Shown here piece after piece: positions 3,412 through 63,796 of a stretch of 64,000 bases of DNA. The notes below the pieces were generated by a model. That model did not search any database, was not told where the DNA came from, and saw only the letters and a program-made list of their open reading frames with translations. The DNA lies in the IMG/VR virus record IMGVR_UViG_3300049712_000011, positions 4,365-68,364 of that record; one strand, written 5' to 3'. Position 1 is the first letter of the stretch, and each line of letters opens with the position of its first letter. A program made the translations under genes and the position numbers. This DNA comes from a virus. Lineage: Duplodnaviria; Caudoviricetes.

Positions 3412-3715
3412 CCAAGAACTACAGAATGCTGTATTAGCTGACCCAACATTAACACCTCAACAGAAACAAAAAATTGTAGAAGTGTTATCTGATGGAGATA
3501 AGCTACCACGACTCCTAACCGGAGCTCTAGGCTCAGCTGTAGGCGTCGCGATTGCTAAGTACATGAAGCTCAGCAAGGTATCTAAAGTTCTTTTAGGCGT
3601 TGCAGGGTTTGGAATTGGGCGTCTTTTGTATGACGTTCTCTCTAAACATGATGGACAATTTGCCTCCTATAATAGTAAGATAAGAGCATATGAGATGGAC
3701 ACCACAAGATATTAA
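3398..3715 (+). CDS. small Gly-zipper membrane-active/virion protein
   Basis: Two GxxxG hydrophobic helices; overlaps neighbours. Confidence 0.55.
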   Translation: MPSNNQELQNAVLADPTLTPQQKQKIVEVLSDGDKLPRLLTGALGSAVGVAIAKYMKLSKVSKVLLGVAGFGIGRLLYDVLSKHDGQFASYNSKIRAYEMDTTRY

Positions 3716-18457: not shown

Positions 18458-18638
18458 TGGTATAATAAGTAGATCAGCATGTTCGTAGTTATCGAACGTG
18501 TTGATCACTTCTTTAAGGCAGCTGCCGGTTTTTGATTTGTCGGCAGCTGCTGAGCTTTTGATGCACCCCAGGGTCCTTTTGGAAACAAGGGATTTACACC
18601 AAACGGACAAACTAGGGCTGCGAGGCCCTGGGGTGCAT
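18458..18638 (+). promoter_or_regulatory. extended -10 promoter followed by three strong hairpins (structured leader or sRNA)
   Basis: TGgTATAAT at 18458-66; stems 18473-505, 18518-550, 18561-638. Confidence 0.5.
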
Positions 18639-18665
18639 TCTGATTCAGTCTTCTTTTTCTTAACT

Positions 18666-19715
18666 ATGACTACAGATGGAAATATCGCAAACTTAAGAGT
18701 TATGACCCCACTACAGCCAGTTGGACAAAAGGCCGATATAGGTGTGATTATCGGAAGGTTCCAAGTTGACGCCCTTCACCAAGGCCATATCAACTTGCTC
18801 GACACTGTTTCCTCCAGGCATCACAAGGTCATTATCTTGTTGGGTGTTGCGAGGGTTCCAGGAGAGCGCGACAACGCTTTGGACTTTGATTGTCGGCGTT
18901 TGATGATCCAGGAGAAGTATCCTGAGTTCATTGTGCTGCCTCTCCCAGACTGCCGAACCAATGAAGAGTGGAGTAAGAACGTTGACTCTACTGTGCGTAC
19001 GGTGGCAGGACCTGGTCAATCTGTAATACTGTATGGTGGGCGCGACAGTTGCCTACCCTGTTACAGCGGCAAGTTTAAGATCCAAGAATTGGAAGACCCA
19101 GAGGGTACCATTTCAATGTCTGGAACTGCTGTAAGGAATCGTCTCGCTGTTTCAGTACAGGCTAGCCAAGGCTTTCGAGCTGGAGCTATCTGGGAAGCTC
19201 ACCAGAGTTACCCACGGGTGATTACCACAGTTGACGTGGCTATTGTCGATAAGGAAAAACGTCGTGTACTTCTAGCTAGGAAGCCAGGAGAGACACAATG
19301 GCGGTTCGTTGGAGGGTTTTCGGAACCCAAGTCTGCTTCCTTTGAATCTGACGCCAAACGTGAAGCAATGGAGGAGACTGGATTGGAAATTTCTGATCTG
19401 GTTTATCTCGGTAGCTTTAACGTCCCAGACTGGCGTATGAAACGAAGTGTGAACCAGATCAGAACCTTGTTCTTTGCTGGTACCTACACATTCGGCGGAC
19501 CTAAAGCCAATGATGACATCGAAGAAGTTCGTTGGTTCGCGTATGACGAGCTCTACAATGAGCATGCCAAGAAATACGTTGAGAGAGAGGCCCGAGTGCC
19601 TCTAGTAGTCCCTGAACATAAGGACCTATTTTTAGCTCTCCTTAACTTTATTAAAAGGATCGATGAAGATTATCTTTTGGCAAGACCCGAGCAGGTACGA
19701 GTTACTGAATCCTGA
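18666..19715 (+). CDS. nadM: bifunctional NMN adenylyltransferase / Nudix ADP-ribose pyrophosphatase
   Basis: IIGRFQ..LHQGH, SGTAVR, then Nudix box GGF...REAMEETG; the ORF-track start at 18498 lies in a structured leader. Confidence 0.9.
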   Translation: MTTDGNIANLRVMTPLQPVGQKADIGVIIGRFQVDALHQGHINLLDTVSSRHHKVIILLGVARVPGERDNALDFDCRRLMIQEKYPEFIVLPLPDCRTNEEWSKNVDSTVRTVAGPGQSVILYGGRDSCLPCYSGKFKIQELEDPEGTISMSGTAVRNRLAVSVQASQGFRAGAIWEAHQSYPRVITTVDVAIVDKEKRRVLLARKPGETQWRFVGGFSEPKSASFESDAKREAMEETGLEISDLVYLGSFNVPDWRMKRSVNQIRTLFFAGTYTFGGPKANDDIEEVRWFAYDELYNEHAKKYVEREARVPLVVPEHKDLFLALLNFIKRIDEDYLLARPEQVRVTES

Positions 19716-20531: not shown

Positions 20532-21959
20532 ATGAGTGTAAAAATCGAGAATCGCCTTTTCCGTCCAGTTATCGACAACCCTATTCTGGCAACAGATGCG
20601 TACAAGCTTACGCACTGGTTGCAGTATCCAAAAGATACACAGGTTGTTTACTCCTATTTGGAGAGCCGTGGTGGTGAATTCGACCATACTGTGTTCTTCG
20701 GTTTGCAGTACTTCCTGAAGCAATATCTCACCGGCCGGGTTATCACTTACCAGGACGTGGATCGTGCAGAGATTTTCACCCAGGATCTTTTCGGTCACAA
20801 CAAGTACTTTAATCGGGAAGGTTGGATCCACATCATCAATAAGTATGATGGCCGCCTTCCAGTCAGAATCTGCGCAGTTCCTGAGGGTACACGTGTTCCT
20901 GTCCATAACGTCTTGATGACGATGGAGAACACGGACGAGAACTGCCCGTGGCTTACGAACTTTTTGGAGTCGCTTCTCCTGAAGGTTTGGTATCCCACGA
21001 CGGTATGCACCTTGTCTAATGAGATCAAGCGACTCATCGGCAAGTATGCCAAGCAAACGGGTGGAAGCGTGCATCCCTTCCATTTGAATGACTTCGGCGA
21101 CCGTGGCGTATCCTCACCAGAATCCGCAGCCCTTGGTGGTGCTGCACACTTGGTTAACTTCCAAGGCACTGATACGCTTCAAGCGATTCAGATGTTGCGC
21201 GCCCTGTACAATGGCGGCAAGGATACTGGACACTCCGTGATGGCGTCAGAGCATAGTACGACGACCATCTACGGCAAGGATGCAGAGGAGGACGCATACA
21301 GGCACTTCTTACAGGTAGCTGAACCCAATAGCATTCTCTCAGTCGTTATTGACTCGTGGGATACGCTTAACGCGGTCAACTACATTCTAGGCGAAAAGCT
21401 TAAGAAGGAGATCCTGGAGCGTCCTGGACGATTGGTACTTCGTCCGGACTCAGGTACACCAGAAGAGATGGCCGTGCAGGTTACCGACCTGGCGTTCAAT
21501 CGATTCGGGGGTACCACAAATGCTGCTGGTTACAAGGAGCTCAACCCAAAGATCGGAGTTATCTATGGAGATGGTATTACGTACCGCTCCATCGGAATGA
21601 TTCTCGAGAACATGGTTAAACACAAGTATGCTGTGTCGAACCTCGTGTTTGGTATGGGTGGTGGCTTGCTCCAGCAGGTAAACCGTGACACTCAGAAGTT
21701 TGCGTTCAAATGCAGCTGGGCTAAGGTTGCCGATGAAGGCCGCGAGGTCTTCAAGCAACCAAAGACGGATTCTGGCAAGAATTCGAAGAAGGGTCGATTG
21801 AAGCTGTGCCAAACGAACTTTGGTCAGCTGGCGACATTTCAAGAAGACTTTCAGGCTGACACCCTGCAGTCTGAAAACTTGCTGGTCCCTGTGTTTGAGA
21901 ATGGAGAACTTCTGGTTGATCAGAGCCTGAATGACATTCGTCAACGGGCTGCACAGTAG
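20532..21959 (+). CDS. nadV: nicotinamide phosphoribosyltransferase (NAMPT)
   Basis: TDAYKLTH, DFGDRG, SEHST, SVVIDSWD, RPDSG, FGMGGGLLQ. Confidence 0.95.
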   Translation: MSVKIENRLFRPVIDNPILATDAYKLTHWLQYPKDTQVVYSYLESRGGEFDHTVFFGLQYFLKQYLTGRVITYQDVDRAEIFTQDLFGHNKYFNREGWIHIINKYDGRLPVRICAVPEGTRVPVHNVLMTMENTDENCPWLTNFLESLLLKVWYPTTVCTLSNEIKRLIGKYAKQTGGSVHPFHLNDFGDRGVSSPESAALGGAAHLVNFQGTDTLQAIQMLRALYNGGKDTGHSVMASEHSTTTIYGKDAEEDAYRHFLQVAEPNSILSVVIDSWDTLNAVNYILGEKLKKEILERPGRLVLRPDSGTPEEMAVQVTDLAFNRFGGTTNAAGYKELNPKIGVIYGDGITYRSIGMILENMVKHKYAVSNLVFGMGGGLLQQVNRDTQKFAFKCSWAKVADEGREVFKQPKTDSGKNSKKGRLKLCQTNFGQLATFQEDFQADTLQSENLLVPVFENGELLVDQSLNDIRQRAAQ

Positions 21960-25118: not shown

Positions 25119-25235
25119 GCGTCGTTAGCTCAACGGTAGAGCACCTGCTTTCTAAGTAGGAGGTTGTGCGCTATTCATTGGAGGGCCTTTGAAGCTTTCC
25201 TTTCTCGCGAGGTTCGAATCCCACACGGCGCACCA
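25119..25235 (+). tRNA. trnR: tRNA-Arg(TCT) with a 42-nt insertion in the T-stem
   Basis: Acceptor GCGTCGT/ACGGCGC, D and anticodon arms, TTCGAAT loop, CCA; T-stem GTG|GG split by 25169-25210. Confidence 0.85.
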
Positions 25236-40995: not shown

Positions 40996-41407
40996 GGAGA
41001 ATAATGACAGTGTAATCTATACAAACGAGATATACTGTATAACGTCAAGACATGGAACTCAGTTTCATACTTTGACCGTTAGCCCGTTGTGGGTGGGATT
41101 CTTGAATCCTCAACCACACGTCTTGTCGACCTATCTAGGTGAACACACCTTTGTAGTGCAAACTGATAAGCCGATGTATCTGATTCCATACAACCACCAG
41201 ATGGCTCTTAAGTACGCTACCAAGGTTATAGACCTGGACACTTATCCATCTGGTAAGGCACCTTGTGACGCTCATAGAGTGATAAAGGTTCCTATGGAAT
41301 TTACGTTGAACGTAATGCCGTATTTTCAATTTAAGATTGATGAGGGAGGTACGCTTTACAAAAGAGAAGGAGATAGTAAATGGCAGAAGTGCAAGCTACA
41401 GCAATAG
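40988..41407 (+). CDS. hypothetical protein
   Basis: ATG at 40988 overlapping the helicase stop. Confidence 0.5.
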   Translation: MNEENNDSVIYTNEIYCITSRHGTQFHTLTVSPLWVGFLNPQPHVLSTYLGEHTFVVQTDKPMYLIPYNHQMALKYATKVIDLDTYPSGKAPCDAHRVIKVPMEFTLNVMPYFQFKIDEGGTLYKREGDSKWQKCKLQQ

Positions 41408-44169
41408 GTATTGACGAGTTCTTAGAGAACATACAGAAGCTTAAACCGGAGGGCGTGGATAAGAAGTGGATACTTCCTTATGGTGATCACGAAGCAAAGT
41501 TGATGATCATAATGAGTTATCCTGGAGCAGACGCGCTACAAACTGGTGAGCTAATGGAGGGTCCGAATGGGTTAGAGCTAAGCAATGCGTTAGATGTGGC
41601 TGGCTTCAAAGAGTCCGATTACTATTTGACCAGCATGGTTAAGTATGGAATTGGAAACTTGCCAAAACCCACTACCGCTCAGATTAACGAATGCTCTGCA
41701 GCATTGGATTATGAGATAGAGGTAATCAAACCAGACTTGATTATCACACTAGGTGCGGAACCCTTCAAACGCATCATGAAGCAGAATTCGAAGATTACTG
41801 ATTACATGGGCAACATTATTGATAGCCCATATGGTAAGCTTCTCCCGAATTTCTCGCCAGGCATGATCGTAACTCAAGATCCAAGAAAACGCCCACAGTT
41901 CAGAGAAGTATTTGAGCTAGCTAAACGTTTCCTGGATGGAACCCTTGAGTACACTCCATACGAGTACATTGTAGTGGATGACCCGGATGTTAGTAAGGAA
42001 ATCATTCAACACTACATCGACACAGAGCAATTCCAGATAGGCTATGACGCAGAGTGGTTTGGAACTAAAATGACCGATGATGAAGTCATGTATACGTTCC
42101 AATTCAGCTGTGAACCACACAAGGCTATTATCCTGGACATCTCCAAGGATGGTGTTAAAGAAAACTTGGAACTGCTTCATACAGTTAAGCCACTATTGGA
42201 GCATCCTAAAGCAGAGCGTATGGGTTGGAACGTACGAGCTGACGATAAGAGACTCAAGCTTAGAGGTATCACACCTTTGGAAGAAACCTTAGGTTTCGAC
42301 GGAATGAAAGCTTGTGGCTTCCTGGATAGCAGATGGCCAAAGGGTTTGGAAACTGGTATTAAGTACTTCACTAAATATCGCCCATACTACAAGGACCTCA
42401 CAAAGGTTCTAAAGGATAACGGGTTAAAGTATAGTGAGATGGCTAAGGCTAAGTTCATTGATCCCAAGACATTCTATGAGTACTGCGGTGGTGACGCCGT
42501 AGCACACAGAACCGCGTGTCTTGGTATGAAGGAACGTATGCTGCAGCTTCCTCCTAAACAGAGGGACTACTACTTCAACACGTATCTTCCACTGTCCAAC
42601 TACTTGATGGATCTGGAGCTTACCGGCATATCTATCGACATGAAGGTATTGCAGGATCTCACAGACAAGTATGGCGCTAAGTACGATGAGCTTAGAGGCA
42701 AGCTGTTGGAGCTTACCAAGCCTTACCTGGAGACGTTCAACCCTAACTCCTCCAAGGATAAGAAGGTCTTGTTATTTGACCAGCTCAAGCTTACACCTGC
42801 GTTCTACACTAAAGACAGGAAGATCAAATCTCGAGCTTGGTTTGAGAAGCAGAAAACAGCAACCCAGAAGCAATGCTCACCCAGCACTAATGGTAAATCG
42901 CTTGCTACAATTGCCTTCGACTTGGAGAAGGAGCTTAAAATCACTGGTGACCCAGAGGTTCGAGCTAAGCATGAGATTGTACAAACCATGTTGCAGCTGG
43001 CCCGTGTTGGTGTATTTGCAACTAAGTTCCTTTGTAAAGACGGAACAGAGTTCGATGAAACGCCAGAAGAGGAAGATGACGAGACAGAAGCTAAGAAGAT
43101 ATCCTACTGGACTTCCATTTGTAAAGATGGTCGTATCCATCCGGACTTCTTTGAATGTCTGAAGAACTTCCGAAGCAGCTCAACACCTAACGTCCAAAAC
43201 CCGGCGTCAAAGGTGTTGTCCCACGTTCCAGCGATTTTCGTACCAGATTACGCAAATAAGCTGAAGGAACTGAAGGCTCTTAAACTTCCTGAAGATGAAT
43301 TCAAGAAGAAAAAGAAAGAGCTCGAAGCGCCGATTCCTGACAACGTTCGCCATATCTTCTACGGAGGTAGCAAGGATTGGCACTGGGCTGAAGTGGACGT
43401 TGCTGGAGCTGACTTGGCGATTGCTGCGTTTGTGTCCGGTGACAAGAAGTATATTACTGACATGCTTAAGGGTGGTTTCCACCTTACGAAAGCTAAAGAG
43501 TATTTCCAAGATCCTAATGTGTCTAAGGATGACTACTCTCGCTATGTATCTGCTAAGGCTATTACTTTCCGTGTGGCCTATACCGCAGATCTTATGTCAG
43601 CTTCTCTCCCAATTCAGGCGGAAATCTATGCGGAGTCTGGTATCTATGTAGATCTAGACCGTATTGAGTTCGCTTTGAAGACTTGGGAAAACTACGATAC
43701 GTACATGGCCTTCCGGGACCATTGTACGAAGCAAGTAGAGGAAACAAAGAGTATCGTGAACCTTAGAGGTATTCGTTATCACTTTGAGGATAGCGAAGAC
43801 TTTAAGATTCTGGCTGGATGGAAGAATGAATCGTTAGCTTATCCTATTGCTAGTGAGCTAGCTCTGTTTCTGTGGGACGTATCAGTCTCAATGAAGAAGC
43901 AGCTTAAAAAGGATGGGCTATGGCTCGATAAGATCTACCCAGTAAACTCTGTACATGATGCGTCATATTGGACAGTCCATAAAGACCTCATGAAAGACAA
44001 CTACTTCCCGGAATTATGCAAGTACTTCTTCACGAAGCACTGCAAGATCACCACTGGAGATAACTTAGGTATGGAAATGGTCGTCGCGGACCGCTGGAAA
44101 GGTAAGGATGCTGTATTCCATGGTGAGACTCAGTGGGACTTCGAAAAGAAGTGCTGGAACTGGAAATAA
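41380..44169 (+). CDS. polA: family A DNA polymerase with N-terminal uracil-DNA-glycosylase-like and 3'-5' exonuclease domains
   Basis: UDG-like PYGDHEAKLMII..PG..IKPDLIITLG; exo YDAE; motifs A (EVDVAGAD), B (R..AKAITF..AY), C (VHD). Confidence 0.9.
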   Translation: MAEVQATAIGIDEFLENIQKLKPEGVDKKWILPYGDHEAKLMIIMSYPGADALQTGELMEGPNGLELSNALDVAGFKESDYYLTSMVKYGIGNLPKPTTAQINECSAALDYEIEVIKPDLIITLGAEPFKRIMKQNSKITDYMGNIIDSPYGKLLPNFSPGMIVTQDPRKRPQFREVFELAKRFLDGTLEYTPYEYIVVDDPDVSKEIIQHYIDTEQFQIGYDAEWFGTKMTDDEVMYTFQFSCEPHKAIILDISKDGVKENLELLHTVKPLLEHPKAERMGWNVRADDKRLKLRGITPLEETLGFDGMKACGFLDSRWPKGLETGIKYFTKYRPYYKDLTKVLKDNGLKYSEMAKAKFIDPKTFYEYCGGDAVAHRTACLGMKERMLQLPPKQRDYYFNTYLPLSNYLMDLELTGISIDMKVLQDLTDKYGAKYDELRGKLLELTKPYLETFNPNSSKDKKVLLFDQLKLTPAFYTKDRKIKSRAWFEKQKTATQKQCSPSTNGKSLATIAFDLEKELKITGDPEVRAKHEIVQTMLQLARVGVFATKFLCKDGTEFDETPEEEDDETEAKKISYWTSICKDGRIHPDFFECLKNFRSSSTPNVQNPASKVLSHVPAIFVPDYANKLKELKALKLPEDEFKKKKKELEAPIPDNVRHIFYGGSKDWHWAEVDVAGADLAIAAFVSGDKKYITDMLKGGFHLTKAKEYFQDPNVSKDDYSRYVSAKAITFRVAYTADLMSASLPIQAEIYAESGIYVDLDRIEFALKTWENYDTYMAFRDHCTKQVEETKSIVNLRGIRYHFEDSEDFKILAGWKNESLAYPIASELALFLWDVSVSMKKQLKKDGLWLDKIYPVNSVHDASYWTVHKDLMKDNYFPELCKYFFTKHCKITTGDNLGMEMVVADRWKGKDAVFHGETQWDFEKKCWNWK

Positions 44170-55716: not shown

Positions 55717-55791
55717 GCGGCAGTAGCTCAATGGTAGAGCACTTCCTTGCCAAGGAAGATGTTGAGGGTTCGAGTCCCTTCTGCCGCTCCA
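55717..55791 (+). tRNA. trnG: tRNA-Gly(GCC)
   Basis: Canonical cloverleaf, encoded CCA. Confidence 0.95.
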
Positions 55792-55796
55792 ATCTT

Positions 55797-55997
55797 ATGT
55801 CCAACAATTCAAAATCCAGGCGATTTCCAAATCTGGAACCTGAAAATTACGAGTATTACAAAGATGCTGATAAGCATTATGTAGAAACACACGAGTTTGG
55901 GTTACAGGAATATGATACTGAGGAACTTGCTGTAAAATTCATAAACAATTATGGATTATGGCTAGCAGCAATGGACCCTTACGATGGTCATGGATAA
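55797..55997 (+). CDS. hypothetical protein
   Basis: ATG at 55797 after tRNA-Gly. Confidence 0.5.
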   Translation: MSNNSKSRRFPNLEPENYEYYKDADKHYVETHEFGLQEYDTEELAVKFINNYGLWLAAMDPYDGHG

Positions 55998-56151
55998 ACG
56001 AATTCAACACGAGCTAAACTATATTGCCTTTTTAGAAAAGCGATTAGCTAGTTCCAACTACAAGAAGAACGTCAGCAAAGAAGAATACGAGGAGACAGAA
56101 GCTAAGCTTAAGAAAGCCAAGTTCATCCTCAAAGTTCTGAAGACTAACTAA
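55990..56151 (+). CDS. small helical protein (53 aa)
   Basis: MDKRIQHELNYIAFLEKRL...; not in ORF track. Confidence 0.5.
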   Translation: MDKRIQHELNYIAFLEKRLASSNYKKNVSKEEYEETEAKLKKAKFILKVLKTN

Positions 56152-56157
56152 TGAGAT

Positions 56158-56587
56158 ATGACCTCACAATGGACTGAAGAAGATTTTGAACCTCAGATTT
56201 GTGTGGTAGGAGTTATCCATAACCCGGAGAACCGGGATGAAATACTTCTCCAGAAGCACAAAAAGCTAGAGGCTTGGAATCTCCCTGGCGGCAAAGGCAC
56301 TCTCGAGGATAACCCATACGATGTGCTTGTAAGGGAGCTACAAGAAGAATGTGGAATCGCCGTAGCAGACGCATATCTGTATAAACACAAACTTATTACT
56401 GTCGAGCGTGACGGTAAGAAAATGAATGTACCGTTATATTGTGTTGAAGTATACCGGTGTAATTAAGAACTTGCAGGAAGATAAACATCCTATACAAGAA
56501 TTCCTTAATGCCTGGGAGAAAAAACGTCGTAACGAGCCTTTAACTCAAGCTTTGGAGTACTGGCTAGAGTTTGACTACGCAATTTAA
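56158..56587 (+). pseudogene. Nudix hydrolase split by a +1 frameshift near 56425
   Basis: Nudix box PGGK...RELQEECG; +1 frame continues MYRYIVLKYTGVIKNLQEDKH. Confidence 0.55.
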
Positions 56588-56597
56588 TTTTACTCAT

Positions 56598-56673
56598 GGC
56601 CCGGTCGTCTAATGGTTTAGGACACCTCCCTTTCACGGAGAAGACAGGAGTTCGATTCTCCTTCGGGCTACCA
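56598..56673 (+). tRNA. trnE: tRNA-Glu(TTC)
   Basis: Canonical cloverleaf, CCA. Confidence 0.92.
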
Positions 56674-56678
56674 ATTTT

Positions 56679-56870
56679 ATGGAAACGAAAACTAAAAAAG
56701 AGCTGCAACCTGGACAAGTCCGGGGACCTTACGAAAAAAATAAGCAGTGGTTCTACGAAACCGTGGAACTGGGTGAGTCTTGTGGTTTTGATGTCAAAGA
56801 AGAAGCTGAAAAGAATATCGAAGCTTACACTACCTGGTTCAAAGATAAGCAAGTTGAAGCTACTGTATGA
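56679..56870 (+). CDS. hypothetical protein
   Basis: 63 aa ORF. Confidence 0.55.
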   Translation: METKTKKELQPGQVRGPYEKNKQWFYETVELGESCGFDVKEEAEKNIEAYTTWFKDKQVEATV

Positions 56871-57142
56871 AGACTTTTGTAGAATCTACACCGTTTGCTG
56901 CGTACTTTAAATGTGACTGCGGCTGGTTAAACGAATGTTGGCAAGTCAGCAGCTGTTGCCCCAAGTGCGGTATTGGTGTTCAATATTTGCGCCGTGTTAC
57001 TGGCCGTTGGAATATCACTTACAACAAACCTGGAATATTTCGACAATTCCTTTATGCCATAACTTGGGCTCCCTTCTACGATGAAGTCAGCCGGGAATTT
57101 GAGGAAGGCAGAAAGTTCGGTTCAGCTGTACCGGTCAGCTAA
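56867..57142 (+). CDS. Zn-ribbon protein
   Basis: CDCG...CPKCG. Confidence 0.55.
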   Translation: MKTFVESTPFAAYFKCDCGWLNECWQVSSCCPKCGIGVQYLRRVTGRWNITYNKPGIFRQFLYAITWAPFYDEVSREFEEGRKFGSAVPVS

Positions 57143-57256
57143 TTAATTTAGAGCAGGTATCTGCTCAATTGGACAATGTGTCCTGGTGGGAATCGCACGA
57201 AGACGGTTTGGGAATCAACCCTACGTGTAGCAACACGATCTTCGAAATCTAATTAA
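57143..57256 (+). ncRNA. multibranch structured leader upstream of the RNA ligase
   Basis: GAGCAG/CTGCTC, GGAC/GTCC, CGAAGA/TCTTCG, GGTT/AACC, CGTG/CACG stems. Confidence 0.4.
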
Positions 57257-57257
57257 A

Positions 57258-58136
57258 ATGGGATACCTACATATAGACAACCTTTACAAGAACCAAGATG
57301 TTCTCCTTTTCAAAGAGTGCTACGCTCTTGAGAAGATTCACGGCACTTCTGCTCATTTGATATGGCACTTTCAGGATGGTAAGATCACTTATTCTTCCGG
57401 TGGTGCAAGTCACACGAACTTCCTTAAGTTGTTTCAAGATGACCTGCTGAGCCAGGCATTCAAACAACTAGGTGTGCTTGACCGTAATGTAACAGTTTAC
57501 GGAGAAGCCTACGGTGGCAAAGAGCAGGGAATGAGCGCCACGTATGGTAAGGAAATGAAGTTCATTGTTTTCGATGTTCAAATCGGGGACAGCTGGCTTT
57601 CAGTACCTCAAGCCGAAGATGTAGCAAAGAAGCTCGGTCTCGAGTTTGTTTACTACGTTAAGATTCCTACCACATTAGAAGCTCTAGATAAGGAGAGGGA
57701 CGCAGAATCTCAACAAGCCATTCGTAATGGAATGGGTCCTGGTAAGGCTCGTGAGGGTGTCGTTCTCCGGCCTCTTATCGAGGTTATCAAGAACAATGGA
57801 GCCCGAGTACTTTCTAAGCACAAGGGTGATGCGTTCAAGGAAACTGCTACACCGCGGAAGGTAGTAGATCCAGCACAAATGCAAATATTAGCTGATGCCC
57901 AAGCTGTGGCTGATGAGTGGGTAACTCTCACACGCCTGGAGCATGTGCTACAAAAGATTCCAGACCATGGCATGGAAAAGATGCGGGACATCTTAGCGGC
58001 TATGGTAGCGGACGTGCTGCGAGAGGGTATAGGTGAAATTGTGCCCTCTACAGCAGTGGAGAAAGCTATTGCTGGTAAGACTGCTGTGATGTACAAGTCT
58101 TACTTGAAAGCTAAGCTTCAGGAAATTGCAGTTTAA
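57258..58136 (+). CDS. RNA ligase (Rnl2-like nucleotidyltransferase)
   Basis: Motif I LEKIHGTS, III VYGEAYG, IIIa FIVFDV, IV REGVVLRP, V SKHK. Confidence 0.85.
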   Translation: MGYLHIDNLYKNQDVLLFKECYALEKIHGTSAHLIWHFQDGKITYSSGGASHTNFLKLFQDDLLSQAFKQLGVLDRNVTVYGEAYGGKEQGMSATYGKEMKFIVFDVQIGDSWLSVPQAEDVAKKLGLEFVYYVKIPTTLEALDKERDAESQQAIRNGMGPGKAREGVVLRPLIEVIKNNGARVLSKHKGDAFKETATPRKVVDPAQMQILADAQAVADEWVTLTRLEHVLQKIPDHGMEKMRDILAAMVADVLREGIGEIVPSTAVEKAIAGKTAVMYKSYLKAKLQEIAV

Positions 58137-58381
58137 GCAAATCACACGCTGCCGATAAAGCTAAACAGGTAGAGGAAGTTCGCGACTCCAGAAACTCGTA
58201 ATGGGAGGGCTGCTGGGTAACACTGGCAGCCCGACTTACCATATGTCAGGAGCAACCCTAAAACGTCCCAGTGTGTGAGTTCCACGTTATGAGGACATGG
58301 TTGGGGCAGTGGCTATTAGCACGCCACCACGAAAGTGAGATAAATGTGTGATCACGACAGAATCGCGGCTACATGCTAAAC
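58131..58381 (+). ncRNA. rnpB: RNase P RNA, minimal (about 250 nt)
   Basis: GAGGAAGTTCGCGACTCC and AGATAAATG..ACAGAATCGCGGCT with P4 (bulged U), P1, P2, P5 (CTCC/GGAG), P6 (AACTC/GAGTT), GAGCAA. Confidence 0.88.
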
Positions 58382-58478
58382 AATAGGAGTAAGACAATAT
58401 GACACAGCTAAACGCAAGATAAAAGTACCTGACAAGGTACGAGAGGAATTCGAGTTCTTCCTAAATACAGATCTCGAC

Positions 58479-58832
58479 ATGATAGGTAACGAAGTTGGAG
58501 TTAAGAGCGTAGATGATCCTAATGGATATTCAGCTCTTGAATGTTACTTCATGTTTGATAGTCAAGGTAAGCATTTGCCTTGTCGAGGAGTCGATAACTT
58601 AAATAAGGTTATACGAGGTAAGAAAAGTTGGAACTTGCAAGTGAAGCTATGGGCAGAAGACATGGGTAGCGAACTAGGTTTGCTGCTGATGCCTGAAGAG
58701 CTTCATGAATATTGTAATAGTCTACCTTCTTGGATAGAGAAATCTGTTCTTAATCAAGCTAAGAAAATCAAAATGAAGAATAACGATGGATACTGTCCTA
58801 GTTACATTTTGAAGGCGCTTGAAAACTTATAG
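58479..58832 (+). CDS. hypothetical protein (frame open from 58380)
   Basis: 117 aa from ATG; plausible N-terminal extension without a canonical start. Confidence 0.55.
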   Translation: MIGNEVGVKSVDDPNGYSALECYFMFDSQGKHLPCRGVDNLNKVIRGKKSWNLQVKLWAEDMGSELGLLLMPEELHEYCNSLPSWIEKSVLNQAKKIKMKNNDGYCPSYILKALENL

Positions 58833-58903
58833 GCGGTCCTCTGTGCGAGGTGACGAGACTCCAAATCTTGTCTTGGTCGGTTCGATTCCGACACCGCCTG
58901 CCA
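58831..58903 (+). tRNA. trnW: tRNA-Trp(CCA) with atypical short D-arm and 7-bp anticodon stem
   Basis: AGGCGGT/ACCGCCT, CTCCAAA loop, GTCGG-TTCGATT-CCGAC, G73, CCA. Confidence 0.8.
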
Positions 58904-58916
58904 ATTTTAAGAAATA

Positions 58917-59429
58917 ATGATTACAGTTAAAACAGTAAATAAACCAGGTAAAATTGATACAGCCTGGATCAGAACACAGCTGGCTAACCTGTATCCAGGT
59001 ACTGTTGCAGCTAAATGGAAACGAACATCAAAGAAAAATATTGCTGACGATGTGGTTCGTACCTTTATTCATCCTGGTAAGCCAACTATTGTAGTCACAG
59101 AGTTATTGGGTATCCTTTCCCCTGTGCAATTTTCAGAGCAACCAGATGGTGATAATCGTTTGATGGAAGAGCAGGTTATTGCTGCTGCTAAAACTATCAA
59201 ACATTGTGGTGATTACGGTCGACTACATGTTAATCACAACGATAAAGAAATTTGGTGGTGCGCAGGTGATGGTGACTGTAGTACAGAACAAGGTCACACA
59301 GGCTATGAGGAAATCAAGCTATTGCTAAAAGTTCCAGGGGTTAAAGTTGTTCATTTGGAAGCGGAATGCGAACCAGATGAAAACGATACTGAGTGGAAAT
59401 ATCTAGGCACATTTGGCATCACTGTATAG
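58917..59429 (+). CDS. hypothetical protein
   Basis: 170 aa ORF. Confidence 0.6.
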   Translation: MITVKTVNKPGKIDTAWIRTQLANLYPGTVAAKWKRTSKKNIADDVVRTFIHPGKPTIVVTELLGILSPVQFSEQPDGDNRLMEEQVIAAAKTIKHCGDYGRLHVNHNDKEIWWCAGDGDCSTEQGHTGYEEIKLLLKVPGVKVVHLEAECEPDENDTEWKYLGTFGITV

Positions 59430-59699
59430 CTAGTCCACTAGGCAGACGAGTATGTCTGTTGGATGACTAGCACTTGTCCTCTGTGTTCCCTTTCGATTTG
59501 AGCGACGTGAGCCGACGAAGGTCTTCGGATCTATACTGTGCAGTCTGTTTCTCTTACGATAGATAATATAGCGGAGGTTGCTTACCGACATGGCCTCTAG
59601 GGGATTCTGTTTGTAAGTTAGTACGCTTCAAACCGTACAACGAGGTGCGTCTCGTTAAACGACGGGGGACGGTAGGCATCATCCCGATACCACACCTAC
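59429..59699 (+). ncRNA. putative large structured ncRNA
   Basis: GCTAGTC/GACTAGC, GTCCTCTGT/ACGGGGGAC, GTTCCCT/AGGGATT, AACGAG/CTCGTT, GGTAGG/CCTACC. Confidence 0.5.
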
Positions 59700-59711
59700 C
59701 AGACTTTCCAT

Positions 59712-59770
59712 GGGCGCATAGCTCAAAGGTAGAGCCATATGAATTGAGGGTTCGAGTCCTTCTGCGTCCA
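59712..59770 (+). ncRNA. tRNA-Ala-like RNA lacking the anticodon arm
   Basis: GGGCGCA/TGCGTCC (G3:U70) and A73, full D- and T-arms, only 10 nt between them. Confidence 0.75.
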
Positions 59771-59778
59771 TACTATTT

Positions 59779-59982
59779 ATGCATCCTAGTCCTATTTACC
59801 CTGATACGTCTCCAGCTGCCAGGCGTAAGCGCAAGAATAAAGAACGTCATCGAGTGCAATTCCCTAAAAGAATTCATACTTGTAATAGATGTGGCGGGCA
59901 CGAGACGTGGTGTAGTTGTTGTGAAGTATTCTCTTGCCATGGAGATTGTAATGACGGATACGGTACTTGTATGTGCAGTTAA
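59779..59982 (+). CDS. small Cys-rich protein
   Basis: CNRC, CSCC, C..C..C. Confidence 0.55.
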   Translation: MHPSPIYPDTSPAARRKRKNKERHRVQFPKRIHTCNRCGGHETWCSCCEVFSCHGDCNDGYGTCMCS

Positions 59983-59986
59983 TTTA

Positions 59987-60120
59987 CTTGGGGCAGTGAC
60001 AGAAACGGTTACTTCTTATTGACAAAGACGGGGCTGGGTTCGAATCCCAGCGGCAACACAATATGTTGCTGTGGTGTAGCGGATAGCATCGAACACACTG
60101 TTTCAACTTTTCTCCCCAAG
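59987..60120 (+). ncRNA. circularly permuted tRNA-like RNA (YrlA/Y RNA-like topology)
   Basis: T-arm, then acceptor hairpin CGGCAAC/GTTGCTG, then D-arm; ends paired (CTTGGGG/CCCCAAG, GAAACGGT/ACTGTTTC). Confidence 0.7.
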
Positions 60121-60129
60121 GAGACTTTC

Positions 60130-60205
60130 GGGCTCGTAGCTCATTTGGTAGAGCGGCTGCCTTGCACGCAGTAGGTGGCAGGTTCGAATCCTGTCGGGTC
60201 CACCA
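60130..60205 (+). tRNA. trnA: tRNA-Ala(TGC)
   Basis: Canonical cloverleaf, G3:U70, CCA. Confidence 0.95.
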
Positions 60206-60329
60206 ATTAACACAGGTAGAAATACCTTCCGTAATGTCGGACGTCTGGGCCACGATAGTGTCCACCAATTTACCGCGTCTATATTGCTAGGCTTAGATCA
60301 GTAGGTGTTGCTGAAGCGGTTCCGTTTAT

Positions 60330-60407
60330 GGGGGTTTAGCTCAGTTAGGTAGAGCAACACCCTTTAATAAGGTGTACGGGTCGGTGGTTCAAATCCATCA
60401 GCCCCCA
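60330..60407 (+). tRNA. tRNA-Ile-like with a 9-nt anticodon loop (CTTTAATAA), no encoded CCA
   Basis: Ile-type body; ACACC/GGTGT stem; enlarged loop and variable region. Confidence 0.65.
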
Positions 60408-60414
60408 AACTTTA

Positions 60415-60491
60415 GGGGTCATAGCTCAGTTGGCTAGAGCGTCTGCATGGCATGCAGAAGGTCGTGGGTTCGAGTCCCACTGGCTCCACCA
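60415..60491 (+). tRNA. trnA: tRNA-Ala(GGC)
   Basis: Canonical cloverleaf, CCA. Confidence 0.95.
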
Positions 60492-60501
60492 GAATTCAAA
60501 A

Positions 60502-60741
60502 ATGAAAAAGAAGGTAGAATACGTAGTTACACTAGCGGAGCTTATGGCTCCTAAGATTGCTGAGATAGAAGCTAAGGATAACATAAAGCTACAAAATTGG
60601 ATCTTTTCTCCAATCGGGAATGCCAAGGTTGTCAACGGTGACTTGGATGCTAGTAAGATTACTATCACCTTCAGTGCCACCCTTGATGCTGAAAAGGTAG
60701 AAGCTGAAAATCTAGAGAGAAAGATTGACCTAAAGCTATGA
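60502..60741 (+). CDS. tandem family member 1 (ends ERKIDLKL)
   Basis: ATG at 60502; ATGA/GTGA-coupled series. Confidence 0.65.
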   Translation: MKKKVEYVVTLAELMAPKIAEIEAKDNIKLQNWIFSPIGNAKVVNGDLDASKITITFSATLDAEKVEAENLERKIDLKL

Positions 60742-61007
60742 CACAAGAAGTCGTACTCAAACTTACAATGACAGATTTGATGGAAATGATTGAACCAGCT
60801 TTAGTGGCTTCTGGATTTACTTTAATAGACTGGGCTGTTAATAGAGCTGATCCGTACGCTATCTACAATAGGTGTTCTAATGGTGCCAGAACCGAAGGTA
60901 GCAGAGCTCAGATTGAAATTAGGGCTACTAAGAACGTCAGCAATACTACAACTGACGTGGCTAAGTTAGTTGCGGAAGGCACTAGGAATATCTCGCTAAA
61001 GCTATGA
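60738..61007 (+). CDS. tandem family member 2 (ends TRNISLKL)
   Basis: Shared C-terminal motif. Confidence 0.65.
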   Translation: MTQEVVLKLTMTDLMEMIEPALVASGFTLIDWAVNRADPYAIYNRCSNGARTEGSRAQIEIRATKNVSNTTTDVAKLVAEGTRNISLKL

Positions 61008-61285
61008 AAGTAACCAAAACTGTTACCACAAATGTCGAAGTTTCCTTGATGAGTCTGGTAGCTGAAATGGTTAACAGGCTGGTTCAGGATGGTGATAATG
61101 TAGCTAACGTAGCAATATCGGTGTCCAGCCCATACTACAATGCTACATCTGTGGAGGCTACAACGGTCGACCGGCTCAACTGTACGTTGAAACTTAAGAT
61201 CACGAAAGTCATTGAAGAAGAGATAGGCGTTAAGCCTGGTAAGATTATTGATTCCGCAGAACGAAACATTTCCTTAAAACTGTGA
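61004..61285 (+). CDS. tandem family member 3 (ends ERNISLKL)
   Basis: Shared C-terminal motif. Confidence 0.65.
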   Translation: MKVTKTVTTNVEVSLMSLVAEMVNRLVQDGDNVANVAISVSSPYYNATSVEATTVDRLNCTLKLKITKVIEEEIGVKPGKIIDSAERNISLKL

Positions 61286-61575
61286 ACGCGACACAAACTA
61301 CAAAGATCGAAATTTCACTCAGAGACTTGCTGGCCCCTTACATCAAACGAATAGAATTGATGGACGGAGTAAAGCTTAAGGCTTTCACTCTGGTATCCAG
61401 CTCCAAAGGTAGCTTTGACCCAAGCATCATGTACATCTCTGAATACATGATTAACAACCCTGACTACACACTAAAGATGGACGTCGAGGTTGAGAAAACT
61501 TATACGATAGATCCATCTGAAGACCTTGTGGCTGCCGTTAACGAGCACGCCCGAAACATTACACTTACATTATGA
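61282..61575 (+). CDS. tandem family member 4 (ends ARNITLTL)
   Basis: Shared C-terminal motif. Confidence 0.65.
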   Translation: MNATQTTKIEISLRDLLAPYIKRIELMDGVKLKAFTLVSSSKGSFDPSIMYISEYMINNPDYTLKMDVEVEKTYTIDPSEDLVAAVNEHARNITLTL

Positions 61576-62021
61576 ACGAACAATTTATTAACGACCTTGT
61601 AGCAGCAGCTAAAGAAGCTGTAGCTAAAAATGGCGGTTCTGGCAAGCGCCCCGTCAAAGGTAGCTGTGCAGCTGTAAAAACTCCGGAAGTGGTTTTTCAA
61701 GCTGCAGGAGCTAATCCTAAGGCCACTGTCAAGCCACCTCCACCAACAGAGAATGACCTTCGTATAGCTGCAGAACGGCTAGGGCTGACTTACAATCCTC
61801 CGCCTGTTAAGGTTGCTACCGTGGGTGCAGGCAAGCCTAAGGTTGTTGAACACATGATTCCAGGTGTCGCTCACGGAGTGGCTTTGCAGCCTGGCTCAGA
61901 GCTGCGTTACTCCCATAGGGCATTGAAGAAGCTTATTATGGAAGACATAGCACGCCGAGGTAATGGTGGTGAATACGATATCGATTTTGATGATCTTGGA
62001 GCTGTTATAACAGCTCGATAA
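61572..62021 (+). CDS. hypothetical protein
   Basis: 149 aa, Pro/Ala-rich middle. Confidence 0.55.
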   Translation: MNEQFINDLVAAAKEAVAKNGGSGKRPVKGSCAAVKTPEVVFQAAGANPKATVKPPPPTENDLRIAAERLGLTYNPPPVKVATVGAGKPKVVEHMIPGVAHGVALQPGSELRYSHRALKKLIMEDIARRGNGGEYDIDFDDLGAVITAR

Positions 62022-62028
62022 AATTTCT

Positions 62029-62105
62029 GCATCCATAGCTCAATTGGTTAGAGCAGCGCCCTTTTAAGGCGAGGGTTGGGGGTTCGAGTCCCTCTGGGTG
62101 CACCA
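62029..62105 (+). tRNA. trnK: tRNA-Lys(TTT)
   Basis: Canonical cloverleaf, CCA. Confidence 0.93.
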
Positions 62106-62113
62106 ATTTAAGT

Positions 62114-62204
62114 GGGGACTGTTCCATGTGGCTGACTGTAAATCAGTTGTCTATAAATATACATGGCGGCTGACGAAGAGGTTCAACTCCTCCAGGCCCC
62201 ACCA
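62114..62204 (+). tRNA. trnY: atypical tRNA-Tyr(GTA): reduced D-arm, long variable arm, 8/4-like acceptor/T stems
   Basis: GCTGA-CTGTAAA-TCAGT, GAGG-TTCAACT-CCTC, A73, CCA. Confidence 0.7.
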
Positions 62205-62213
62205 CTTTAACTT

Positions 62214-62696
62214 GTGCAAAACGAAAAACTACAAGTATTGGAAGACGCGATAGAGTTTTTCAAGGACTTCTATCGTGTGAAGCTGTATGACGTGAAGTAC
62301 CTATTTGTTCCAGAGTCTAACCCCGTAGCGAATGGAACATACAATCGAGAGAGTCAATTGGTTATAGTCTACGGCATTGACCACAACCCAATTGACTCTT
62401 TATTGAACACTTTGTTTCATGAGTTATGGCATCATTACCAGTATTACATTGCCAGGACTCTGAAAGCTGAAAGTAAAGTATTCATAACCAGCAGTGAGTC
62501 TCTGTGTCAATCTGTTCCTTGGGATGAACCTAGAATTAGAGACATCTACCACTATCCGTACAAAGTTATGTATCGGACGTTCTTCTACAGCAAAGACGAA
62601 ACAGATGTTAAGTACTGGGATAAAGAATACGAGTTAGAAGCTCGTGACAAAGCAAGTATGCTCCATAAAGAATTCAAAAAGTCTAAACAAACATGA
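62214..62696 (+). CDS. HExxH zinc metallopeptidase-like protein
   Basis: NGTY...LFHELWHHYQ...ELEAR. Confidence 0.6.
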   Translation: MQNEKLQVLEDAIEFFKDFYRVKLYDVKYLFVPESNPVANGTYNRESQLVIVYGIDHNPIDSLLNTLFHELWHHYQYYIARTLKAESKVFITSSESLCQSVPWDEPRIRDIYHYPYKVMYRTFFYSKDETDVKYWDKEYELEARDKASMLHKEFKKSKQT

Positions 62697-62860
62697 AAAT
62701 ACTAGAACCTTTTCTCATAGGCCTACTGGCTGGGTTAGTCGTCGGTATGATTGCTGGTGCGACCTTGGTAACCGACCGGATGAAATCCGAAGCAATCAAG
62801 AATAACGTGGGTCGGTACAACCCTACGAATGCCGCTTTTGAATGGCAAGTTTGCAAATAA
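62693..62860 (+). CDS. small membrane protein (55 aa)
   Basis: N-terminal TM helix; not in ORF track. Confidence 0.5.
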   Translation: MKILEPFLIGLLAGLVVGMIAGATLVTDRMKSEAIKNNVGRYNPTNAAFEWQVCK

Positions 62861-63166
62861 ATGAAAACAATCAGTCTTAATCCAAAAAAGAATCCAGCTG
62901 TTCGTCGTAAGGCTCTGCGTAAAAAGGCAGGCCTTACAGGTCCAGTTACCTTGAAGGCTTGGCGTGGCGTCCCTTCTCGAAATGTACGACACAACAAGTA
63001 TGTGTTCGTTGAAGGAAAGTGCTACAACATTGCAAAGATAACTGCTGACGTAGAAGCTAAACTTCGCGAAGCAGAAAAGAATCAAGTTGCCGCTGAGGTT
63101 TCCAGTAAGGAAGAGACTCAGCCTACCTTGACTGTGGAGTCAGTTAAAGAAGGTCTGACACAATAA
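62861..63166 (+). CDS. basic hypothetical protein
   Basis: Arg/Lys-rich N-terminus, acidic tail. Confidence 0.6.
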   Translation: MKTISLNPKKNPAVRRKALRKKAGLTGPVTLKAWRGVPSRNVRHNKYVFVEGKCYNIAKITADVEAKLREAEKNQVAAEVSSKEETQPTLTVESVKEGLTQ

Positions 63167-63172
63167 TTTAGT

Positions 63173-63248
63173 GGGACGTTAGTTCAGTGGTTTAGAATAC
63201 TGCCCTGTCACGGCAGAGACACGGGTTCGACTCCCGTACGTCCCGCCA
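63173..63248 (+). tRNA. trnD: tRNA-Asp(GTC)
   Basis: Canonical cloverleaf, G73, CCA. Confidence 0.95.
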
Positions 63249-63252
63249 CCTT

Positions 63253-63465
63253 ATGGCTAACACAAGTAAACACGCGTGTCCTAGATGTAGCCACAGTAGA
63301 GAGAACAAGATTATTTCAGAATGTACGAAGTGCGAGGAAGCACATCGGCATATGGAGTGCTCCAACTGTGGTTACAATTGGAATGAATGGATAAAGCATG
63401 AAACTAGTGATATCAAAATCAGAAGTGCTGGAAATACTTCGCAAGAGCCTGAACCTTCCAGTTGA
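63253..63465 (+). CDS. Zn-ribbon protein
   Basis: CPRC, CTKC, CSNCGYNW. Confidence 0.55.
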   Translation: MANTSKHACPRCSHSRENKIISECTKCEEAHRHMECSNCGYNWNEWIKHETSDIKIRSAGNTSQEPEPSS

Positions 63466-63712
63466 CGTTAACATAGAGTTAGAAGTCTCCCAGAATGCCG
63501 AGCTCAGCTACGGTGACTCTGTACTTATCCAGGAGATCGACAAACTGGATTGGAGATACAGTGCGAAAATTACTGCAATTAAGAAACTCCGTGAGTATAC
63601 TAATTGTAGTCTGTTCGATGGTAAGACTGCCATTGAGAATTGGCCTACGTTCAAAGAATTTGCCAAGTCCCAAGGTCGATTTCCTAAACTAGGAGTCGAG
63701 AAGTTCATCTAA
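63398..63712 (+). CDS. protein with a ribosomal bL12 C-terminal-like domain
   Basis: KITAIKKLREYTNCSLFDGKTAIE resembles KIxVIKxVRExTGLGLKEAKxxVE. Confidence 0.65.
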   Translation: MKLVISKSEVLEILRKSLNLPVDVNIELEVSQNAELSYGDSVLIQEIDKLDWRYSAKITAIKKLREYTNCSLFDGKTAIENWPTFKEFAKSQGRFPKLGVEKFI

Positions 63713-63718
63713 ACTAAT

Positions 63719-63796
63719 CCGAGTGTAGCACAGTTTGGCTAGTGCGCCTGCTTTGGGAGCAGGAGGTCGCAGGTTCAAATCCTGCCACTCGGACCA
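63719..63796 (+). tRNA. trnP: tRNA-Pro(TGG)
   Basis: Canonical cloverleaf, CCA. Confidence 0.95.

Follow-up and report, generated by a model that had tools for sequence, protein, structure and literature searches.

The stretch of DNA analysed here (the window) comprises 64,000 nucleotides (nt) of a 68-kb virus record in IMG/VR (IMGVR_UViG_3300049712_000011; CheckV completeness ~33%). At positions 58131-58381 of the window, on the plus strand, lies an element that our analysis supports as a 251-nt phage-borne RNase P RNA of bacterial type A with a reduced specificity (S) domain. All elements of the catalytic (C) domain are predicted to be kept, namely P1-P3, P4 with its bulged U, P5, the P6 pseudoknot, P15-P17, the GGU of loop L15, a GNRA hairpin at the position of P18, and the conserved regions CR-I, CR-IV and CR-V, while the S-domain appears reduced to a stub of 59 nt. 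We refer to this form as the mini RNase P RNA.

The limits of the gene were set by the Rfam alignment, the family profile and the helix map, and positions 58131 and 58381, already named in the original prediction, proved to be exactly the outer ends of P1. The P1 5' strand (58131-58139) consists of GUUUA (58131-35) and GCA (58137-39) separated by the bulged A58136, and pairs with UGC (58374-76) and UAAAC (58377-81) in 58374-58381. This strand overlaps the stop codon of the upstream open reading frame (ORF; 58134-58136), and every checked member of the family described below has a P1 of 6-14 bp in this position. The P2 5' strand AUCACACG (58141-58148) pairs with UGUGUGAU (58345-58352), and is followed by the P3 hairpin (58149-58172; CUGCC 58149-53 with GGUAG 58168-72 and a 14-nt loop), which completes the P1/P2/P3 stack. 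CR-I and the P4 5' strand (GAGGAAGUUCGCGA, 58172-58185) were placed by the Rfam alignment, the helix map and family pairing. P4 is a long-range helix between 58177-85 and 58363-70, formed by the pairs A58177-U58370, G58178-C58369 and U58179-G58368 and by C58181..A58185 with U58363..G58367; U58180 is bulged, as had been predicted, and is the equivalent of E. coli U69. CR-I (GAGGAA..UC) and CR-V (ACAGAA...) flank this helix. The P5 5' strand CUCC (58186-58189) pairs with GGAG (58249-58252).

On the 3' side of P5, the region of junction J5/15 (58253-58264, from the Rfam alignment and the helix map) contains CAA, the P15 5' strand CCC (58256-58) and the A-rich UAAAAC, which corresponds to the A248 region. 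It leads into P16 (GUCC 58265-68 with GGAC 58293-96) and P17 (GUG 58271-73 with CAC 58283-85), which together span 58265-58296. The P6 pseudoknot, between J5/7 and L17, joins AACUC (58193-97) to GAGUU (58277-81) in the P17 loop. The 3' side of L15 and P15 (AUGGUUGGGGC, 58297-58307) carries GGU at 58299-58301, the equivalent of the RCCA-binding motif G292 G293 U294, and the P15 3' strand GGG (58303-05), so that P15 has 3 bp and the GGU lies in an internal loop of the P15-P16-P17 arm. Two hairpins follow at the P18 position (58309-58337): GUGGC/GCCAC (58309-13/58323-27) and CAC-GAAA-GUG (58328-37) with a GNRA loop. Hairpins stand at the same place in L014, L010, L024, L048, L011, L020 and the phage DLP6, and are absent from the smallest family members; judged by eye, the presence of the GNRA hairpin did not track the length of the S-side hairpin. 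The last segment (58337-58371, from the Rfam alignment and the helix map) holds CR-IV (GAGAUAAAUG, 58337-46; similar to AGAUGAAUG and located between P18 and P2), the P2 3' strand, J2/4 (CACG), and CR-V with the P4 3' strand (ACAGAAUCGCGGCUA). Thus, the pairings P1, P2, P5, P6 and P15-17 that the original prediction had proposed all form in the helix map, and P3 forms too.

The S-domain remnant, as delimited by the Rfam alignment and the helix map, occupies 58190-58248. The earlier estimate of about 60 nt with two hairpins between the P5 strands was right in length, which is exactly 59 nt; in place of two hairpins there is one interrupted stem together with the P6 5' strand. This stem consists of a P7-like helix of 4 bp (AUGG 58201-04 with CCAU 58239-42), which encloses a GA spacer, a hairpin of 10 bp (58207-16 with 58223-32, loop GUAACA) and, directly 3' of the hairpin, the A-rich junction GACUUA (58233-38). 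P8, P9, P10-P14, CR-II and CR-III, that is, the platform for the tRNA elbow, are absent, and the absence of P10-P14 claimed beforehand is therefore borne out. The stub also has the parts seen throughout the family (P6 strand, P7-like helix, GA spacer, G-C-closed hairpin and A-rich 3' junction), and its length falls within the family range of 40-76 nt.

To place the RNA among known families, the region 57800-58700 was scanned against Rfam with permissive filters, and RNaseP_bact_a (RF00010) was the sole meaningful match. The global alignment covers 58130-58386 on the plus strand and model positions 1-367, with 34.3 bits and an E value of 4.8e-9 in a 701-nt search. About 140 S-domain positions of the model correspond to ~55 nt of the RNA, and the deletions are confined to the S-domain. 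The alignment retains P1/P2, P3, CR-I (GAGGAAGUUCGCGACUCC), the P5 3' strand with GGAGCAA, the P15-P17 arm with GGU, CR-IV and CR-V, and the 3' block that the original prediction had compared with E. coli aligns with the RF00010 consensus (AGAugAAUG ... ACAGAACCCGGCUUA). When the best covariance-model match within the RNase P clan was kept, it was RNaseP_bact_a and not the archaeal type T model, which answers the covariance-model check proposed earlier in favour of the bacterial A form. At the gathering cut-off no RNase P RNA was reported in either the 64-kb window or the whole 68-kb record, where only tRNAs were listed, and a genome-wide RF00010 search of the same record gave no candidate by a route that is too insensitive for mini forms.

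We then collected related RNAs from phages. A pattern with short spacing between the P5 strands (GAGGAANNTCNNNNCTCC N40-70 GGAGCAA; motif 1) was scanned over IMG/VR and gave 23 loci; in 18 of these an ACAGAA-like motif is followed by a complementary P4 3' strand (one of the 18, L012, ends at a contig edge). A second pattern from the J5/15-P15 region (GGAGCAA-NNN-AAANAG ... GGGUNGNNGC; motif 2) brought further IMG/VR members. After removal of duplicates, 16 other distinct members of 190-284 nt remained on phage contigs, in addition to truncated ones, and all 16 have the same order of elements: P1, P2, P3, P4, P5, stub, P15-17, CR-IV and CR-V. A further pattern, CACGAAAGTGAGNNAAATG, added only L205, a chance match derived from a repeat, which was discarded. 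One contig (L023) carries, next to its full copy at 3202-3409, a partial match to the family profile at 3418-3535 on the minus strand (E 8e-11, profile positions 5-129), which may be a tandem partial duplication.

Covariation was measured in an alignment of the 16 members from which the window was left out (A3), with P4 and P6 entered as pseudoknots. Paired positions were formed in 93.3% of cells compared to 67.9% in shuffled alignments, and compensatory changes on both sides were found in 35 of 44 pairs, a count reached by 0 of 500 shuffles. When the partners were slid by 1-3 columns, pairing was only 35-44%. By helix, family pairing was 97% for P2 (compensatory changes in 6 of 7 pairs), 100% for the three closing pairs of P3, 100% for P4 (6 of 8), 90.6% for P6 (4 of 4), 96% (95.8%) for P15 with compensatory changes, and 90.5% for P16 and 85% for P17, in both of which all pairs are compensatory. 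The P7-like helix (79%) and the stub hairpin (86%) also contain compensatory changes. P5 was fixed by the search patterns; in the phage DLP6 it reads CUGGC/GCCAG at the same place. Furthermore, 15 motif-1 members show no variation at the L15 GGU, at AG and AAU in CR-IV, at the A and C residues of ACAGAA or at the UA that follows P4, and all of these positions lie outside motif 1.

When a profile of A3 was searched against the 64-kb window with nhmmer, the sole significant match was 58147-58371 (E 3.7e-17, 56.3 bits, profile positions 6-179 of 179). The same profile recovered a copy in a cultured phage, Stenotrophomonas phage DLP6 (KU682439.2; E 5.1e-19), at ~105,774-106,022. This copy fills an unannotated gap between a hypothetical gene and a tRNA-Arg gene within the phage tRNA cluster, scores 54.7 bits over 249 nt against RF00010, and has P4 strands identical to those of the window. 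It was recovered by the profile only and not by blastn; blastn of the window RNA and of three other members (L007, L022 and L029) against GenBank phages gave no match. In cellular genomes, a motif 1 scan of 596 Gb revealed no mini form among the at least 120 matches listed, and about that many were expected by chance. Two of these matches were examined and set aside: L109 matches weakly and by chance, and L170 is a bacterial rnpB of ordinary, full size that contains GGAGCAA internally. The mini form is therefore apparently phage-specific. These results collectively agree with the core of the original prediction, a phage RNase P RNA with an intact core and most of its S-domain gone, which is now backed by the Rfam alignment, the covariation in the family and the phage context.

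The mini RNA lies in a loose cluster of 9-10 tRNA genes on the same strand (55717-63796, plus strand; Rfam and ARAGORN). The nearest are tRNA-Glu (56598-56673, 1.5 kb upstream) and tRNA-Trp (58831-58903, 450 nt downstream). Across the family, 15 of 18 member loci have the mini RNA near tRNA genes, on the same strand in dense arrays and in some cases only a few nt from a tRNA; in L007, 9 nt separate it from the tRNA on either side. The window thus shares the tRNA-array setting; in most members the cluster is tighter. Eight of the nine ARAGORN tRNAs of the window encode the 3' CCA, and pairing between GGU and RCCA would therefore be available without CCA addition. The idea that encoded CCA compensates for the lost S-domain was rejected across the family: 52% of the tRNAs beside mini forms end in CCA compared to 40% beside full-size phage forms, and the distribution is bimodal by phage.

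Several unusual tRNA genes were also observed. In the tRNA-Trp(CCA) at 58831-58903 (plus strand), the D-loop is short (UGUGC) and the usual GG is missing, which makes its elbow atypical; D- and T-loops are ordinary in the other eight ARAGORN tRNAs. At 59712-59770 (plus strand) lies a 59-nt tRNA-like gene (Rfam tRNA model, 44.4 bits) that was not called by ARAGORN and encodes no CCA; its acceptor stem, D-arm and T-arm are present and ~9 nt stand in place of the anticodon arm. A tRNA mimic and a minimal substrate of RNase P are both possible readings of this gene. Far from the main cluster, a 114-nt tRNA-model match at 25119-25232 (plus strand, 47.9 bits) has an Arg(UCU)-like anticodon arm, an insertion of ~40 nt before the T-arm, and CCA after the acceptor end. 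In another contig that carries a mini RNase P RNA (L018), ARAGORN called a tRNA with the anticodon CUA at 2041-2114 on the minus strand (amber-reading 'Pyl' or suppressor type).

RnpA, the bacterial protein partner, was sought with PF00825. Neither the 68-kb record nor any of five member genomes gave a match; four of these genomes are complete (DLP6 and three that are 100% complete), and control genomes did give matches. Because no phage rnpA was seen, host RnpA is the likeliest cofactor, and the simplest inference is that the mini RNA probably uses it. The original prediction of host RnpA use is consistent with the missing PF00825 matches, from which the use itself is only inferred. Action by the mini RNA on its own, or together with some protein of the phage, is also conceivable. 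Pfam searches gave no candidate for a dedicated protein cofactor: the downstream 117-aa ORF (58479-58832) had no match, and ten further small ORFs, in the interval 53.5-62.7 kb, gave only a NUDIX match and two sub-threshold matches.

RNase P RNAs of other sizes were also found in phages. With motif 2, full-size type A RNAs were detected in the huge-phage contigs L031/L054, L038/L052, L041, L045, L047/L049, L050 and L053. They are 339-354 nt long, score 224-268 bits, have 154-163 nt between the P5 strands, and all lie inside dense tRNA arrays on contigs of 75.6-497 kb; the contigs of L041 and L053 also carry transfer-messenger RNA genes. Two other RNAs (L033 and L036) have the mini architecture with a stub hairpin enlarged to ~155 nt. 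L033 (1484-1838) and L024 (7125-7375) are near-identical but for an insertion of ~104 nt in the S-side hairpin loop of L033, and the stub hairpin is therefore read as a site of variable expansion. The junction around it is conserved (consensus GGGAG ... CGUUAAUACC). In the full-size phage RNAs the strand directly before the P7 3' strand is GGUAAACCC, which the mini junction resembles, and the two may be homologous. E. coli A233, in the neighbourhood of the strand before P7 3', has been linked to a 2'-OH contact with the T-stem (PMC11143913).

Upstream, the ORF at 57258-58136 (plus strand), whose stop codon falls inside P1, encodes a predicted RNA ligase (PF09414, E 1.6e-12; phrog_548, E 2.2e-28). 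The record further carries a replication and nucleotide-metabolism module of the kind found in large phages, with ribonucleotide reductase, SbcCD-like proteins, helicases (one DnaB-like), RecA, a fusion of uracil-DNA glycosylase (UDG) with PolA, nicotinamide phosphoribosyltransferase (NAMPT) with a NUDIX/cytidylyltransferase protein, and the RNA ligase. The UDG-PolA fusion (41380-44169, plus strand) is a protein of 929 aa with an N-terminal domain of the uracil-DNA-glycosylase superfamily and a family A DNA polymerase domain. No GenBank phage polymerase shares more than 24% identity with this one, and the lineage is therefore taken to be uncultured. The NUDIX/cytidylyltransferase-like protein and NAMPT (phrog_448, E 5e-160) are encoded at 18498-19715 and 20532-21959 (plus strand) and form an NAD+ salvage pair. 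Homologues of the ligase gene were examined at six loci, none of which has a mini RNA downstream; a strict mini-RNA pattern found nothing over five of the ligase-homologue records, and a loose detector returned only AT-rich noise in two of those records, which are the best-covered relatives by the ligase gene (59% and 84% complete).

Many metagenomes from soil and the rhizosphere contain near-identical DNA. In addition, contigs from four rhizosphere metatranscriptome libraries cover 57970-58175, 57998-58153, 58093-58285 and 58162-58295. No RNA-library contig was found in the bins 58376-58777, which is uninformative either way, as these contigs come without ends, strand or level. One metatranscriptome contig (run X20) differs from the window by C58235U in the stub junction and C58253G in the C of GGAGCAA; strain variation or assembly error may account for both.

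What follows on transcription as a discrete RNA, catalysis, substrate choice and the use of host RnpA is our proposal. S-domain-less type A and type B RNAs still cleave pre-tRNA, with and without protein and at lower affinity, and U69, A248 and G292-U294 have been described as C-domain contacts to substrate and metal (PMC11143913). The GGU is reported to pair with RCCA (PMC11143913; PMC5839562). Counterparts of U69, A248 and G292-U294 are all present in the mini RNA. Since these C-domain contacts are kept and RNAs without an S-domain are active, we read the mini RNA as a likely working, elbow-blind RNase P ribozyme that would mature phage tRNAs, probably with host RnpA. The RNA would be made during infection and, like other members, would serve the phage's own tRNA genes. 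The acceptor end of the pre-tRNA would be bound through the C-domain contacts of the cellular enzymes, with the L15 GGU pairing with the encoded 3' RCCA, the A-rich J5/15 strand stacking at the -1/+1 site, and the P4 core with its bulged U holding the catalytic metal ions; the 5' leader would then be cut off. Since the platform for the T-loop/D-loop elbow (P10-P12, CR-II/III) is lost, weaker tRNA binding and reliance on a protein cofactor, most probably host RnpA, would be expected.

A broader role is conceivable, and we put it forward tentatively, with more doubt than confidence. The mini RNA, the abutting RNA ligase and the phage tRNAs might form a phage-private tRNA supply line for the maturation and repair of the phage's own tRNAs once those of the host, or its RNase P, have been switched off, broken down or attacked, possibly by nucleases of host takeover, by the anticodon nucleases of abortive infection or by toxins that alter structured RNAs. 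After the loss of the elbow-reading domain, the RNA might also need hardly any protein or none at all, or accept non-canonical tRNA-like substrates, of which the mimic without an anticodon arm at 59712-59770 would be one.

Several observations weigh against a working ribozyme of this kind. The score of 34.3 bits lies below the Rfam gathering cut-off of 100 bits for RF00010, and the mini RNA is therefore overlooked by routine Rfam annotation. The single-sequence minimum free energy (MFE) fold is unremarkable (z = -1.66); the MFE structure itself, which pairs 58196-58204 with 58286-58294 across real helices, was discarded as uninformative for a pseudoknotted RNA. The gene is patchy even among possible relatives, as the ligase-homologue records without the RNA show. 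A second, full-size RNase P RNA or a phage cofactor may lie elsewhere in the genome, given that the record is about one third complete. The metatranscriptome contigs are a weak hint of expression, with DNA carry-over possible and no information on ends, strand or level. Gammaproteobacteria, to which the host genus of DLP6 belongs, have their own type A RNase P, and if the host has that enzyme the DLP6 copy would be redundant on paper and its benefit unexplained.

Three other explanations were weighed against this one. The RNA might be an active ribozyme with changed substrates, which would cleave acceptor-stem-like hairpins generally (nearby tRNA-like mimics, phage polycistronic transcripts, host mRNAs or non-coding RNAs) instead of or besides pre-tRNAs. 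The RNA lacks the S-domain platform for measuring the 12-bp acceptor/T-stem, the window contains both the tRNA-like gene without an anticodon arm and the tRNA-Trp with an atypical D-loop, and cleavage of pre-4.5S RNA needs no intact S-domain (PMC11143913). However, with eight of the nine ARAGORN tRNAs ordinary in their D- and T-loops, family members sitting in arrays of ordinary tRNAs, the CCA-binding GGU invariant and nothing pointing to mRNA targets, we regard such a shift as unlikely. The relaxed or new substrates (mRNA, host RNA) of the original prediction accordingly found no support, as the position in a tRNA array and the kept GGU/CCA-binding loop point to pre-tRNA.

Even less probable, in our judgement, is a non-catalytic decoy or regulator that sequesters host RnpA or competes with the host RNase P RNA, and thereby reprograms or shuts down host processing of tRNA and other RNA. 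Such a molecule would need no bulged U in P4, no A-rich J5/15, no L15 GGU and no P6 pseudoknot, all of which are conserved or covarying here, and its placement within phage tRNA arrays suggests service to them, although the regions that bind protein in bacterial enzymes (the P2/P3/P4 side, CR-IV and CR-V) are kept and no phage rnpA was found in the window's record or in member genomes. The RNA might finally be the decaying relic of a captured bacterial or huge-phage rnpB that has lost its function. The full-size type A RNAs of huge-phage contigs make capture followed by deletion a plausible origin, and the patchy distribution fits as well. A relic would accumulate disruptive changes, however, and in the 16 other members, from different contigs, the architecture is the same, every helix contains compensatory changes and no P4 pair is broken, which leaves decay barely credible. 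We therefore retain the reading as a probable pre-tRNA-processing ribozyme.

A conserved virus-borne family of this kind would add a ribozyme to the translation-related functions carried by phages, and with a copy in the cultured phage DLP6 its function is open to bench testing now. The family would also be a natural experiment on the minimal bacterial RNase P RNA, in which ~190-284 nt suffice to hold P4, P6, P15-17 and GGU and the elbow platform is dropped, and it touches on the old problem of the purpose of the S-domain. For structural studies and guide-sequence applications, its members could provide scaffolds that are both natural and compact. In addition, the case illustrates how curated covariance-model cut-offs hide a class of RNAs, the mini RNase P RNAs. 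No Rfam 15 model reached its threshold on the mini RNA, and no description of a phage-encoded RNase P RNA was found in a full-text literature search that included a 2026 jumbo-phage review and a 2024 RNase P review; as far as the literature was searched, RNase P RNA has been described only from cells and organelles. What appears new, judged from sequence, is a type A RNase P RNA that is both virus-borne and S-domain-reduced.

Compared with known RNase P RNAs, the mini form is closest in build to bacterial type A (RF00010; E. coli M1 RNA, rnpB, and the Thermotoga maritima P RNA). It shares with them P1-P6, P15-P17, the P18 position, CR-I, CR-IV and CR-V, the bulged U in P4, the A-rich J5/15, the L15 GGU, the helix order and the crossings of P2/P4 and P6. 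It differs in having 59 nt between the P5 strands, where type A has ~155-165 nt, in lacking P8, P9, P10-P14, CR-II and CR-III, in its P15 of 3 bp, and in being carried by a phage with no rnpA in the record searched. The full-size RNAs of huge phages are likewise phage-borne, located in tRNA arrays and built on the same GGAGCAA-NNN-AAANAG ... GGGUNGNNGC arrangement; unlike the mini form, they have a complete S-domain and are found by routine Rfam annotation. Reduced RNase P RNAs also occur in organelles, as in yeast mitochondrial RPM1, which are natural and strongly reduced, with the P4 core and little else. Compared to the mini RNA they are much more degenerate; they rely on large dedicated proteins and lack the P15-P17/GGU module that the mini RNA keeps. 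Archaeal type T does not have the type A bacterial architecture. This form, from Pyrobaculum and other Thermoproteaceae, resembles the mini RNA in being natural, with the S-domain mostly lost and the core kept, and differs in its archaeal C-domain, its archaeal proteins and its status as a cellular, essential and non-viral RNA (Lai et al., 2010, PMC3012483; PMC3579882). The engineered C-domain of E. coli ('CP RPR') consists of the C-domain alone, and such RNAs are reported to be active on pre-tRNA with and without protein at lower affinity (PMC5839562; PMC11143913). That RNA is a laboratory deletion, whereas the phage mini RNAs are natural and conserved, and carry a stub made of a P7-like helix and a hairpin.

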